DNA of 64,000 nucleotides from Escherichia coli 042 (GTDB lineage Bacteria; Pseudomonadota; Gammaproteobacteria; Enterobacterales; Enterobacteriaceae), in the NCBI RefSeq assembly GCF_000027125.1, contig NC_017626.1; one strand, written 5' to 3'. The position numbers and the translations under genes are program-made. Position 1 is the stretch's first letter; every line of letters begins with the position of its first letter. A model generated the notes under the pieces. It saw nothing but the letters and a program-made list of their open reading frames with translations. It was not told where the DNA came from and ran no database searches. This document shows, in pieces, positions 33,242-38,393 of this stretch.

Positions 33242-34744
33242 ATGCTGAAAAGGAAAAAAGTAAAACCAATTACCCTTCGTGATGTCACCATTATTGATGA
33301 CGGTAAACTGCGTAAAGCCATTACCGCAGCATCACTGGGTAATGCAATGGAATGGTTTGATTTTGGTGTTTATGGTTTTGTTGCTTACGCATTAGGTAAA
33401 GTTTTTTTCCCGGGGGCTGACCCCAGCGTGCAGATGGTTGCTGCACTTGCCACTTTCTCCGTTCCCTTTCTGATTCGACCGCTTGGCGGACTCTTCTTTG
33501 GTATGTTGGGCGATAAATATGGTCGCCAGAAGATCCTCGCTATCACTATTGTGATTATGTCGATCAGTACGTTCTGTATTGGCTTAATACCGTCCTACGA
33601 CACGATTGGTATTTGGGCACCGATTCTGCTGTTGATCTGTAAGATGGCACAAGGTTTCTCGGTCGGCGGTGAATATACCGGGGCGTCGATATTTGTTGCG
33701 GAATACTCCCCTGACCGTAAACGTGGATTTATGGGCAGCTGGCTGGACTTCGGTTCTATTGCCGGGTTTGTGCTGGGTGCGGGCGTGGTGGTGTTAATTT
33801 CGACCATTGTCGGCGAAGCGAACTTCCTCGACTGGGGCTGGCGTATTCCGTTCTTTATTGCTCTGCCGTTAGGGATTATCGGGCTTTACCTGCGCCATGC
33901 GCTGGAAGAGACCCCGGCGTTCCAGCAGCATGTTGATAAACTGGAGCAGGGCGACCGCGAAGGTTTGCAGGATGGCCCGAAAGTCTCGTTTAAAGAGATT
34001 GCCACCAAACACTGGCGCAGCCTGTTGACATGTATTGGTCTGGTAATTGCCACCAACGTGACTTACTACATGTTGCTGACCTATATGCCGAGTTATTTGT
34101 CGCATAACCTGCATTACTCCGAAGACCACGGGGTGCTGATTATTATCGCCATTATGATCGGTATGCTGTTTGTCCAGCCGGTGATGGGCTTGCTGAGTGA
34201 CCGTTTTGGCCGTCGTCCGTTTGTGCTGCTTGGTAGTGTTGCACTGTTTGTGTTGGCGATCCCGGCGTTTATTCTGATTAACAGTAACGTCATCGGCCTG
34301 ATTTTTGCCGGGTTACTGATGCTGGCGGTGATCCTTAACTGCTTTACGGGCGTTATGGCTTCTACCTTGCCAGCGATGTTCCCGACGCATATCCGATACA
34401 GCGCGCTGGCGGCGGCATTTAATATTTCGGTGCTGGTTGCCGGTCTGACGCCAACACTGGCGGCCTGGCTGGTCGAAAGCTCGCAGAATCTGATGATGCC
34501 TGCCTATTACCTGATGGTAGTGGCGGTGGTTGGTTTAATCACCGGCGTAACCATGAAAGAGACGGCAAATCGTCCGTTGAAAGGTGCGACACCGGCGGCG
34601 TCAGATATACAGGAAGCGAAGGAAATTCTCGTCGAGCATTACGATAATATCGAGCAGAAAATCGATGATATTGACCACGAGATTGCCGATTTGCAGGCGA
34701 AACGTACTCGCCTGGTGCAGCAACATCCGCGAATTGATGAATAA
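33242..34744 (+). CDS. proP: ProP, osmosensing proline/glycine betaine:proton symporter (MFS)
   Basis: Start chosen at MLKRKKVKPITLRDV (500 aa); 12-TM MFS with C-terminal coiled-coil (DIDHEIADLQAKRTRL). Confidence 0.95.
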   Translation: MLKRKKVKPITLRDVTIIDDGKLRKAITAASLGNAMEWFDFGVYGFVAYALGKVFFPGADPSVQMVAALATFSVPFLIRPLGGLFFGMLGDKYGRQKILAITIVIMSISTFCIGLIPSYDTIGIWAPILLLICKMAQGFSVGGEYTGASIFVAEYSPDRKRGFMGSWLDFGSIAGFVLGAGVVVLISTIVGEANFLDWGWRIPFFIALPLGIIGLYLRHALEETPAFQQHVDKLEQGDREGLQDGPKVSFKEIATKHWRSLLTCIGLVIATNVTYYMLLTYMPSYLSHNLHYSEDHGVLIIIAIMIGMLFVQPVMGLLSDRFGRRPFVLLGSVALFVLAIPAFILINSNVIGLIFAGLLMLAVILNCFTGVMASTLPAMFPTHIRYSALAAAFNISVLVAGLTPTLAAWLVESSQNLMMPAYYLMVVAVVGLITGVTMKETANRPLKGATPAASDIQEAKEILVEHYDNIEQKIDDIDHEIADLQAKRTRLVQQHPRIDE

Positions 34745-34794
34745 GCTGAAACGGATGGCCTGATGTGACGCTGTCTTATCAGGCCAATTGAAGT

Positions 34795-34811
34795 CTTAAG
34801 GTTCACTTAAT
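34795..34811 (+). promoter_or_regulatory. PmrA (BasR) box upstream of pmrR
   Basis: CTTAAGGTTCACTTAAT is a hexamer direct repeat with 5-bp spacer, matching the PmrA box pattern CTTAAT-N5-CTTAAT, about 45 bp upstream of the pmrR ATG. Confidence 0.7.
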
Positions 34812-34855
34812 CTCTGACGCGCATACTCTCCTCCAGGTTAACGGAGGAGAGTGCA

Positions 34856-34945
34856 ATGAAAAACCGTGTTTATGAAAGTTTAACTACCGTGTTCAGCGTG
34901 CTGGTGGTCAGCAGCTTTCTTTATATCTGGTTTGCCACGTACTGA
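34856..34945 (+). CDS. pmrR: PmrR, 29-aa membrane peptide (LpxT inhibitor)
   Basis: ATG at 34856 preceded by GGAGGA; encodes MKNRVYESLTTVFSVLVVSSFLYIWFATY; below the ORF-track size cutoff; its 3' end overlaps the convergent basS 3' end. Confidence 0.8.
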   Translation: MKNRVYESLTTVFSVLVVSSFLYIWFATY

Positions 34946-36012
34946 TCTTTCTTCAGCCGTACCCAGGCCCGCGTGCCGGAAGTCTCTTGCCGGTTTTGCA
35001 GGAAAAACTGCCCGTGATGCAACTGTGTAATGCGGCTGACAATACTTAACCCCAGACCAATCCCGCCATAACGGCTGTCCATACGTACAAACGCTTTACT
35101 CAACTCCCCGCATTTACTCTCATCAATACCCGGTCCTTCATCTTCAACGGCCATGACCGCTCCGCCATCTTCTTGCAGCTTAATCATAATGTTGCTGCCT
35201 TGCGGGCTGTAACGATGGGCGTTTTCTACCAGGTTTCGCAATAACATCCGCAGCAGGGTTGCATCACCTTGAACGGTGATGTCGGCGGCGCTCTCTGGCA
35301 ATAGCAGGGTTTGCTGTCGCTGGTCGAGCATGGTACTGAGTTCGTCATACGAGGGGAGAATGACATCTTCCAGCAGTTTTACATGTTGATAATTACCGGA
35401 AGAAAATGACTGTCCGGCACGCGCCAGTTGCAGCAGCTGGGAGACACTCTCCATCATCTGATCAAGCCGTGCCACTAACGGTGCTACATCAATGTGATGC
35501 GTTTTCGCCAGCAGTTCCAGATGCAAACGCACCCCCGCCAGTGGCGTTCGCAGTTCGTGCGCGACGTCAGCGGTAAACAACCTTTCGTTATCCAGCGTGC
35601 TGGTCAGGCGACTGACCAGATCGTTCAACGCCGAAACCACCGCTTCGATTTCGAGGGTGGCGCTGTGAATGGCAATAGGCGTTAAGTTGTCGGCGGTGCG
35701 CGCTTCCAGCTCTTTTTGCAGCTCCGCCAGCGGCCGGGTGATGCGGCGTACCGCCTGATAGCAGATAAATAGCGTCAGGCTGACCATAAAGACGCCGGGG
35801 ACGATCAGGCTGGCGACCGCCTCGCGGATCTCACGCATGATGTGGCGATCGTTGTTGCGATTGTCGCGTAGCGCCTGCTCAAACAGCTGAATCTGCTCGG
35901 TACTTTCATGCCATAGCCAGAAGACGCTGATCAGCTCAAACACCAACAAAATGGCCCCAATGGTCAATATCAGCCGTTGGCGCAGCGATATTGGTCGGCG
36001 CAGAAAACGCAT
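34921..36012 (-). CDS. basS: BasS (PmrB) sensor histidine kinase
   Basis: HisKA and HATPase motifs (HELRTPL, GIGLGLSIV); start uncertain between 36012 and 36021. Confidence 0.9.
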   Translation of the reverse strand: MRFLRRPISLRQRLILTIGAILLVFELISVFWLWHESTEQIQLFEQALRDNRNNDRHIMREIREAVASLIVPGVFMVSLTLFICYQAVRRITRPLAELQKELEARTADNLTPIAIHSATLEIEAVVSALNDLVSRLTSTLDNERLFTADVAHELRTPLAGVRLHLELLAKTHHIDVAPLVARLDQMMESVSQLLQLARAGQSFSSGNYQHVKLLEDVILPSYDELSTMLDQRQQTLLLPESAADITVQGDATLLRMLLRNLVENAHRYSPQGSNIMIKLQEDGGAVMAVEDEGPGIDESKCGELSKAFVRMDSRYGGIGLGLSIVSRITQLHHGQFFLQNRQETSGTRAWVRLKKDQYVANQI

Positions 36013-36021
36013 CAGATTCAA

Positions 36022-36690: not shown

Positions 36691-38330
36691 TCACTCACTC
36701 TCCTGCAAGTTTGCAGAATATCATCCGCAGCCTGGTAATACTTCGTCTCAACGCCAGTTAATCCCAATAGCGTGGAGAATAAATTATCTTGTGAATAGTG
36801 TTGCGTTTGCGCCTGTTTTTGCAGGCAGTTCTGGTCAACCTGATACCGTTTTTGATAATCCTCCGACAGCCACAGCAGCATCGGCACCTGTTTTTGGCTA
36901 TCCGGGGCGATGGCATAAGGCAGACCGTGCAGATAGATGCCATTTTCACCTAACGACTCACCGTGGTCAGAAAGATAAACCAGGCTGGTGGTGAATTTAT
37001 CCTGATGTTCTTTCAGCAGATTAATCGCTTTATCAACAATATAGTCGACGTAAACCAGCGTGTTGTCGTAAGTGTTCACCAGTTGCTCTTTGGTACAGGT
37101 CTGGATCTCGTTAGTGTCGCAGGTTGGGGTAAATTTCCTGAACTGCGGCGGATAGCGGTTGTAATAGGTCGGACCGTGGCTGCCGATGGTGTGTAAGACA
37201 ATCACGCCATCACCCTGCAGGTTATTGATGTACTCTTCCAGCCCGTGGAACAGCACTTCGTCATAGCATTCGCCGTTGATGCACTGACCAGGCAGATTCA
37301 GCGCGGTGACGTTCTGGTGAGGCACGCGGTCGCAGGCACCTTTACAGCCGCCATCGTTGTCATTCCACAGCACGTTGATGCCCGCTCGCTGAATGATATC
37401 CAGCACGCCTTCCTGGTGCTGTGCCAGCTCTTCTTTGTAGTGCTCACGCGGCATATCCGAGAACATGCACGGTACTGAAACTGCCGTTGCCGTGCCGCAA
37501 GATGCGGTATTAGGGAAATAGACCACGTTATCTTTTGCCAGCCGCGGGTTAGTTTCACGCGGATAGCCATTGAGGGAGAAGTTCTCCGCCCGCGAGGTTT
37601 CGCCGACAATCAGGATGGTCAAATTTTTACGTTTCTCTTTCTGCATTAATGGGTTGCGGTGCGCGTCTTCACCAATTCGCACCAGCGGCAGATTTGCCAG
37701 TCGCTGATGGGAGTACCATGACCAGCTGGCAACAATGCTGTTAGAGGGGCTTAAGGATTTCACCAGCTCTTTGTTGTTGCGGAACAATGAGGCGTAGTCT
37801 TTATAAAACAGTGCGGCGACCAGCAAAATCAGCAGTACAGACACCAGAATATTGGCTCCACGGAAAAGAACACTGCGCAGGCGCGAGGTGGCAGGTTTGA
37901 TTTTAATCCAGCAGGCAATCAGCGCAGCAAGCACGCCGCTGAATCCCAGCGTTAATAACATTTGCGGCGTCATCAACGCATAACTTTCTGCCGGAGTGGT
38001 ATCAATAATATTGGCAATCATCGAGCGGTCGATGACGATGCCGTAAGTCATTATGAAATATTGTGCAGCCGCGCCGACCAGAATAAACAGGCAGGCCAGC
38101 GGTCGATTAAGCCATAAGAAAGAGCTTAGTGTCAGGACAATATTAATCACGCTGAAGGCGACGACTGGCATCGACAAGAAAACCAGTACGTTATGCAGCG
38201 AGTCCAGCGGCAGCGCCTGCAACACCTGTTTAAAAAAGGCAATATTCAGGCAGATAGAGATATAAAAAGCGGCCAACAATAGCCAGGCGAGTAAATTCAA
38301 AGAGGGTCTTTTTAGTAGGCGCTTCAACAT
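36687..38330 (-). CDS. eptA: EptA (PmrC), lipid A phosphoethanolamine transferase
   Basis: Start chosen at [14 protein letters not shown] (547 aa); N-terminal TM domain plus sulfatase-like periplasmic domain; overlaps basR start. Confidence 0.9.
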
Positions 38331-38376
38331 CACGGTGTTTCCATCGAACAAAGTGCGCATATGCTCGCAAAGCAAA

Positions 38377-38393
38377 ATTAAGCCAACCTTAAG
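38377..38393 (-). promoter_or_regulatory. PmrA (BasR) box of the eptA-basRS promoter
   Basis: Minus strand reads CTTAAGGTTGGCTTAAT (hexamer repeat, 5-bp spacer), about 45 bp upstream of the eptA ATG and embedded in a perfect 14-bp inverted repeat. Confidence 0.65.

Follow-up and report, generated by a model that had tools for sequence, protein, structure and literature searches.

The Shine-Dalgarno sequence (SD) of pmrR in Escherichia coli 042 lies in the 3′ arm of a stable, conserved hairpin, and the opposing 5′ arm (the anti-SD) overlaps what we predict to be the −10 element of the PmrA-dependent promoter. We propose that the stem is a promoter-embedded anti-SD, which would keep pmrR silent on RNA that reads through from the upstream gene and leave it open on PmrA-initiated mRNA, and which would secondarily form the 3′ end of proP RNA. 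We put the probability of this reading at about 0.55. The gene, its promoter, its overlap with basS and even the hairpin (in Rfam) were already known, and since every component is annotated or published, the finding is otherwise ordinary; the insulator hypothesis is our only addition. The window referred to below is the whole 64,000-nt stretch of E. coli 042 DNA that was analysed. The genes concerned are the following.

33242-34744, + strand: proP coding sequence, upstream of pmrR in the same direction and a source of RNA that continues into the pmrR region (RefSeq, ORF list).
34856-34945, + strand: pmrR coding sequence, a 29-aa membrane peptide, MKNRVYESLTTVFSVLVVSSFLYIWFATY (ORF list, RefSeq, NCBIfam).
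34921-36021, − strand: basS (pmrB) coding sequence (ORF list, RefSeq).

An earlier sequence-only reading of this DNA had placed a 29-codon open reading frame at 34856-34945, between proP and basS, and had named it pmrR. Both the frame and the name held. The translation given above was recovered at these positions, and it scored 74.2 bits (cutoff 30) against NF033224, the NCBIfam equivalog model of PmrR, with residues 1-29 aligned to profile positions 1-29. RefSeq annotates the locus, between proP and pmrB, as ‘pmrR: LpxT activity modulator PmrR’. The gene had been called unlisted, which is true of the first-stage ORF track, owing to its length cutoff, but not of RefSeq. A 301-bp query around pmrR found matches in 5408 of 5426 complete E. 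coli genomes. Compared with the published PmrR of Salmonella enterica and E. coli (NF033224; EcoCyc G0-10707), this is the same gene and shows no difference, including the PmrA box and the convergence with pmrB/basS; box, translation and basS overlap have all been published.

pmrR is thus a known gene: its product is an LpxT-inhibiting membrane peptide of 29 aa, its promoter is activated by PmrA, and its coding sequence converges on basS and overlaps it. Tagged PmrR fractionates with membranes, and both deletion and overexpression of pmrR impair growth, with phenotypes that depend on the start codon (PMC11429745). The absence of a ribosome footprint would have spoken against the frame; instead, pmrR is translated, with a Ribo-RET start signal that rises 5-fold in low Mg2+, a condition to which a pmrR transcriptional reporter showed no response, a result that counts against our reading of the locus (PMC11429745). 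The link to LpxT in E. coli comes from genetic evidence, and PmrR determines whether lipid A carries diphosphate or phosphoethanolamine, affecting polymyxin and bile resistance (PMC8129183).

Between proP and pmrR, and at the related eptA promoter, we distinguish the following elements.

34787-34952, + strand: Rfam RF02052 (STnc630), matched over its full length (model positions 1-166 of 166) with 181.4 bits, the gathering score being 55.
34795-34811, + strand: PmrA (BasR) box, CTTAAG-N5-CTTAAT (motif match; kept in 56 pmrR loci; published deletion).
34822-34827, + strand: CATACT, the predicted −10 hexamer, which runs into the beginning of the 5′ arm (orthologue alignment).
34825-34834, + strand: hairpin 5′ arm, the anti-SD, ACTCTCCTCC (inverted-repeat search, folding, covariation).
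34832-34836, + strand: predicted PmrA-dependent transcription start (box geometry and −10 hexamer).
34835-34842, + strand: hairpin loop, 8 nt (inverted-repeat search, folding).
34843-34852, + strand: hairpin 3′ arm, containing the SD, GGAGGA.
38377-38393, − strand: second PmrA box, just upstream of eptA, with which the eptA-basRS operon begins (motif match).

The stem had been described as a perfect 9-bp helix at 34826-34851. It is perfect (100% complementary), but it is 10 bp long and spans 34825-34852; GGAGGA does lie in its 3′ arm, at 34843-34848, 7 nt before the ATG. When folded as RNA, the stem reached −19.9 kcal/mol (z = −4.4), and none of 200 shuffled sequences folded as well; the − strand version reached −20.2 kcal/mol. 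The same hairpin is contained in the consensus structure of RF02052. No U-tract follows the stem directly, either on the + strand (GTGCAATG) or on the − strand (ATGCGCGT), and a terminator scan did not call the SD hairpin. We rejected an intrinsic terminator as its identity, since a U-tract after the stem is absent in any species and on either strand.

The PmrA box had been placed about 45 bp upstream of the frame, which agrees with the 44 nt that we count from the end of the box CTTAAGGTTCACTTAAT to the ATG. This box is a perfect instance of YTTAAK-N5-YTTAAK, a pattern with two copies in the 64-kb window, where chance would give 0.10. That it is a functional PmrA box is borne out by an E. coli deletion of the box alone, which gives the phenotype of PmrR loss: in a PmrA-constitutive strain, the deletion caused sensitivity to polymyxin B that was reversed by deleting lpxT (PMC8129183).

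Ten nucleotides 3′ of the box, every orthologue carries a hexamer of the form NAnACT (CATACT, GACACT, GATACT and others). Its A, A and T are conserved in 49, 52 and 53 of 53 sequences (alignment columns 29-34), whereas the two A positions are paired in just 22 and 34 of them. Conservation thus exceeds what pairing needs, and its pattern is that of a −10 element, with A at −11 and T at −7, rather than that of a helix. At promoters controlled by PmrA, the pmra-box overlaps the −35 element and covers about −37 to −21; the cryo-EM paper sets it four bp downstream relative to the PhoB box (−41 to −25) (PMC10570014). With the box ending at 34811, this geometry would put the start near 34832; the hexamer would put it at 34834-34836 (34834-34835 when 7-8 nt are counted), and the base at hexamer +7 is A in 32 of the 53 orthologues. 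The PmrA-dependent start is therefore predicted, from the sequence, to fall where the 5′ arm gives way to the loop, on the arm's last bases or the loop's first. A literature search that did not include Kato 2012, which possibly shows it, found no mapping of the pmrR start site. A simple sigma-70 scan called no promoter at pmrR, as expected for an activator-dependent promoter, and is uninformative here.

The eptA promoter (38330-38393, − strand) has nearly the same layout as that of pmrR: a box, an equal 10-nt spacing to a −10-like gAgcAT, and 46 nt from box to ATG. No comparable stem forms in its leader (−8.9 kcal/mol, z = +0.6), and PmrA promoters therefore do not carry the stem as a general feature.

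The predicted start divides the RNAs that carry pmrR into two classes. RNA begun at 34832 or 34835 folded to −6.8 kcal/mol, no better than shuffled sequences (z about +0.4 to +0.7). In E. coli, the probability that the SD window is unpaired was 0.07 on read-through RNA and 0.73 on RNA from the predicted start; averaged over the 53 orthologues, these values were 0.14 and 0.50. If transcription starts at 34832-34836, then, the gene's own mRNA would lack the 5′ arm and its SD would be free. The hairpin had been suggested to exert translational control. This probably does not apply to the PmrA-induced mRNA, whose predicted start excludes the 5′ arm, but it stands for RNA that contains that arm.

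The mechanism that we propose follows from this geometry, in which the 5′ arm overlaps the −10 hexamer and would end at the PmrA-dependent start. RNA started under PmrA control would have no 5′ arm and a leader of about 21 nt, and with its SD open it would be translated. RNA entering from proP (in Escherichia) or from uvrB (in most other genera) would carry both arms, fold at about −20 kcal/mol and bury the SD, and pmrR would not be expected to be translated from it. Such untranslated RNA would be terminated by Rho further downstream and then trimmed back to the stem, which would leave the stem as a stable 3′ end of proP RNA. Through the hairpin, synthesis of PmrR would depend on the activity of PmrA and be shielded from transcription arriving from upstream.

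To follow the stem across other Enterobacteriaceae, we sampled 80 loci with BasS relatives, one genome per species, and aligned the DNA downstream of basS. In 56 loci a PmrA box was followed, 40-46 nt later, by a hydrophobic open reading frame of 28-33 codons ending beside pmrB. All but one of these pmrR loci (55/56) have a stem between box and ATG, with a mean energy of −17 kcal/mol and the SD always in the 3′ arm; the loop varies among orthologues from 4 to about 10 nt. Covariation was scored on 53 distinct sequences and a 12-pair helix. In this alignment 81.9% of cells were paired, compared with 41-52% when the 3′ partners were slid by 1-3 columns, and the covariation score was 0.250, compared with 0.137 in shuffles, none of which (0/500) reached 0.250. 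One stem pair occurs as AU in 17 sequences, CG in 17, GC in 6 and GU in 6, and other pairs switch between UA and CG or between CG and GC. Pairing and covariation above the controls indicate that the stem is under selection and is not a chance palindrome. In the 3′ arm, A57 and G58, which lie outside the SD core, have stayed able to pair with the CT that is fixed in the −10 hexamer.

The alignment also bears on which strand folds. In the core of the stem, G.U-type pairs outnumber A.C pairs by 36 to 9. This excess favours RNA of the + strand, because a G.U pair there is a C.A mismatch on the − strand. The two outermost pairs are rich in A.C, which would suit the − strand; this is because their A residues are fixed. 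Comparing the folding energies of the two strands gave a mean difference of −0.64 kcal/mol that was not significant (p = 0.71), and we therefore claim no strand from energy. The sequence alone thus weakly favours the + strand, and the core G.U ratio, together with the RNA 3′ ends mapped in vivo, is the only evidence that does.

Some close relatives have no pmrR, among them the Pseudescherichia vulneris group and a Pluralibacter MAG. In these, the stop codons of uvrB and pmrB are just about 25-30 nt apart, and different hairpins occupy the junction. We had considered an absence of hairpins where pmrR is absent as a case against a role at RNA 3′ ends, and dropped it because these junctions bear hairpins of their own.

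Whether RNA from upstream reaches pmrR depends on what precedes it. Just 3′ of proP lies an imperfect inverted repeat:

34756-34786, no strand assigned: imperfect inverted repeat just 3′ of proP (14-nt arms, 86% complementary).

We take this repeat to be a REP-like element. E. coli proP RNA therefore has a stable REP-like stem already upstream of the pmrR promoter. Citrobacter amalonaticus has no such repeat, and its box begins 2 nt past the proP stop codon. The gene that precedes pmrR in the same direction is uvrB in at least 37 of the 56 loci and proP in 8. Often 20-50 nt separate this gene from the box, and at times the gap is negative, the box and the uvrB stop codon overlapping; most loci thus leave no space for a terminator. 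Some Kosakonia loci have the uvrB stop codon within the first half-site of the box (...GCATCTTAATG...), so that there the pmrR promoter overlaps the end of the upstream gene. A terminator-like hairpin between upstream gene and box was found in only 10 of the 56 loci. A tally of fold energies showed the stem to be no weaker in those 10, which counts against an insulating role. Short gaps and few terminators indicate that read-through into pmrR is built into the layout.

Published maps of RNA 3′ ends in MG1655 were converted to window positions by subtracting 4297260, and two features of the + strand fall near the stem.

34856-34857, + strand: mapped RNA 3′ end, 4-5 nt after the stem (Term-seq, MG1655 4332116, PMC7815308; the RNAtag-seq method TRS, peak at 4332117, PMC10687069).
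35208, + strand: Rho-dependent (bicyclomycin-sensitive) termination site, antisense to basS (MG1655 4332468, score 8.58, PMC7815308).

The Term-seq and TRS listings give no − strand 3′ end near the stem. According to the TRS authors, SEnd-seq places termination of the upstream gene inside pmrR (PMC10687069). The Rho site lies about 260 nt past the pmrR stop codon, and substantial + strand signal was present upstream of 4332468 without any PmrA-inducing treatment (PMC7815308); antisense transcription thus reaches well into basS in the uninduced state. Taken together, the 3′ ends, the Rho site and the SEnd-seq statement establish that read-through RNA from the upstream gene exists. Stem-loops can define the stable 3′ ends of Rho-terminated transcripts after exonuclease trimming. 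The pmrR stem resembles such structures in being stable, in lacking a U-tract, in having a 3′ end a few nucleotides on and in having a Rho site downstream, and it differs from them in that its 3′ arm provides the SD for the gene that follows, and in that the stem is conserved with that gene. Given the missing U-tract and the absence of a terminator call, the 3′ end at the foot of the stem is probably best read as that of a Rho-terminated RNA trimmed by exonuclease. Within the pmrR coding sequence there is a further, terminator-like stem (TGCTGG TGG TCAGCA) with a T-rich tail (34899-34923, + strand), which is also a helix in the STnc630 consensus; no RNA 3′ end is placed there in the Term-seq or TRS data.

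The same hairpin has been treated as a 3′-UTR stem-loop of pmrB (Xu 2021). In that study, pmrB clones ending +126, +103 and +86 past the basS stop codon gave colistin MICs of 16, 4 and 0.5 µg/mL, respectively. These endpoints correspond to window positions 34795, 34818 and 34835, and they coincide with parts of the pmrR promoter: +126 falls on base 1 of the PmrA box, +103 lacks the box but retains the −10 hexamer and the complete hairpin, and +86 removes the 5′ arm and the −10 hexamer. The effect of the ‘3′-downstream region’ may thus reflect restoration of a functional pmrR promoter, a reading that leaves the 315-fold difference in pmrB mRNA unaccounted for. Were the hairpin to work as we propose, it would offer a reading of this puzzling 3′-downstream effect on the colistin resistance of pmrB clones.

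The sequence-only reading had named another outcome that would count against it, namely that the hairpin is simply the proP terminator. The RNA 3′ ends at the stem agree with this in part, but ‘simply’ does not fit, as the stem is kept with pmrR whatever the upstream gene. A broader form of this explanation, the main rival to our own, to which we give a distinctly smaller share of belief and which we regard as unlikely, is that the stem does no more than form RNA 3′ ends, by blocking exonucleases or by weak termination. It would do so for the convergent neighbours, which are proP or uvrB on the + strand and possibly eptA-basRS on the − strand, and its overlaps with SD and −10 would be a by-product of the short space (about 42 nt) between box and ATG. 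It would account for the two datasets that put + strand 3′ ends 4-5 nt past the stem, for the other hairpins at the same junction in pmrR-less relatives, and for the sharp difference in the Xu 2021 constructs between +86, in which one arm is lost, and both +103 and +126; in addition, folding is equally good on either strand, with no separation by the energy test. Neither strand, however, has a U-tract after the stem in any species, and the half-life of pmrB mRNA was equal for +86 and +126 (Xu 2021). The stem is kept even where the upstream gene is already followed by a REP-like repeat (E. coli) or by a terminator-like hairpin (the 10 loci), and the core ratio of 36:9 argues against a role on the − strand. 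A by-product would also have to explain why the SD is always in the 3′ arm and why A57 and G58 stay complementary to the CT of the hexamer. Moreover, burial of the SD is unavoidable on any RNA that contains the stem, whatever the purpose of the stem.

A second alternative keeps the stem inside the pmrR 5′ UTR, where it would tune translation of the PmrA-induced mRNA, whether by constitutive damping, as a thermometer, or as a switch that some factor opens. The SD does sit in a very stable, conserved stem. We rejected the thermometer, as a perfect 10-bp GC-rich stem at −20 kcal/mol is presumably too stable for one. PmrR dosage appears to matter, with both deletion and overexpression harmful to growth (PMC11429745), and the 27-fold Hfq enrichment of STnc630 in Salmonella would permit a trans-acting opener (PMC2515195). 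This explanation nevertheless requires a start at or before 34825, no more than 14 nt after the box, which would set the box at about −31 to −15, in conflict with the overlap of pmra-box and −35 element (PMC10570014), and would disregard the conserved −10-like hexamer; the frame is, moreover, translated on induction (Ribo-RET, PMC11429745). We consider it quite improbable. Still less probable, and in our view very much so, is that STnc630 is a true small RNA bound by Hfq, or an RNA with two functions, and that the stem belongs to its regulatory fold. The full-length RF02052 match points that way, as does the source of the family, an Hfq co-immunoprecipitation in Salmonella that recovered 27 reads, against 1 in the control, from the proP/basS intergenic region (PMC2515195 and its supplement). 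Yet the Northern blot for STnc630 was entered as ‘nd’ (PMC2515195), the frame is translated, and the phenotypes depend on its start codon (PMC11429745). The bounds of RF02052 begin 8 nt upstream of the PmrA box (34787 vs. 34795) and end 7 nt past the pmrR stop codon, resembling a read cluster rather than a mapped transcript. Rfam lists RF02052 as a small-RNA gene, whereas here its span holds a promoter and a translated small open reading frame, and we did not retain it as a discrete non-coding RNA. Finally, a perfect inverted repeat over the core promoter could be a DNA operator for a dimeric regulator covering the −10 element and the start site. We rejected this, the least credible of the four, on covariation and loop length: the arm sequences vary while complementarity is kept, G.U-type pairs are common and the loop is variable, which is the pattern of an RNA helix and not of a protein-binding site.

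The proposed promoter-embedded anti-SD has a precedent in mobile elements. In IS10 and IS50, sequence upstream of the gene's own start pairs with the ribosome-binding site, and only read-through transcripts are translationally silent. This protection of the transposase from outside transcription, or ‘fold-back inhibition’, was reportedly worked out by Davis, Simons and Kleckner in 1985 and by Schulz and Reznikoff in 1991. The arrangement at pmrR would be similar if the predicted start is right, in that its anti-SD would then lie upstream of the gene's own start; the geometry is conserved in 53 orthologues. It differs in that pmrR is a chromosomal gene for a regulatory peptide and not part of a mobile element, in that its anti-SD arm overlaps the predicted −10 element of an activator-dependent promoter, and in that the stem additionally marks the 3′ end of the upstream mRNA; specificity for one RNA isoform is, at pmrR, our own deduction. 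We therefore suggest, at somewhat less than even odds, that the stem is an anti-SD ‘insulator’, such that only PmrA-initiated RNA is translated and read-through RNA is silent, and that this design is shared by at least 50 species of Enterobacteriaceae as a chromosomal counterpart of the protection of IS10 and IS50. If this is true, a 29-codon gene set between convergent genes with nearly no spacer would stay strictly under PmrA control despite constant transcription from upstream, and an anti-SD arm placed upstream of the start site would serve as a design rule for insulating small open reading frames. Our search of the literature, which did not cover Kato 2012, found no discussion of a role of the hairpin in pmrR translation.

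The suggestion that the insulator design is conserved extends to PmrR-like peptides of Klebsiella, Raoultella, Kluyvera and Kosakonia, which are divergent and for the most part unrecognised. In these genera, and in Phytobacter and others, an open reading frame of 29-30 codons occupies the position of pmrR. These frames share the PmrA box, the hairpin and the abutment with pmrB; the Klebsiella-type peptide MQKINFREYLAVATALVIIVAFFHQWVLTF is an example, with a conserved W-x-L-[TS]-[YF] end. Two Klebsiella/Kluyvera-type peptides that we compared with the NCBIfam PmrR model gave no match, so that such peptides may go unannotated.

At its 3′ end, pmrR meets basS as follows.

34921-34945, no strand assigned: overlap of the pmrR and basS coding sequences, 25 nt (ORF coordinates).
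35045, + strand: primary 3′ end reported for pmrR mRNA, 100 nt past the stop codon and antisense to basS (MG1655 4332305, TRS supplementary file 6, PMC10687069).

The last 25 nt of pmrR had been said to overlap the 3′ end of convergent basS, and they do so at these positions; the overlap with pmrB has also been shown elsewhere (PMC8129183). Across species the overlap of the two coding sequences ranges from −8 to +57 nt, the value of 25 nt being found mainly in Escherichia, and the convergent, abutting layout of pmrR and pmrB is present in all 56 loci. With its 3′ end at 35045, pmrR mRNA covers about 125 nt of basS. The overlap of the two transcripts is like that of convergent excludons, and ExcludonFinder lists the pair (PMC12288877); the overlap of the coding sequences themselves is not conserved.
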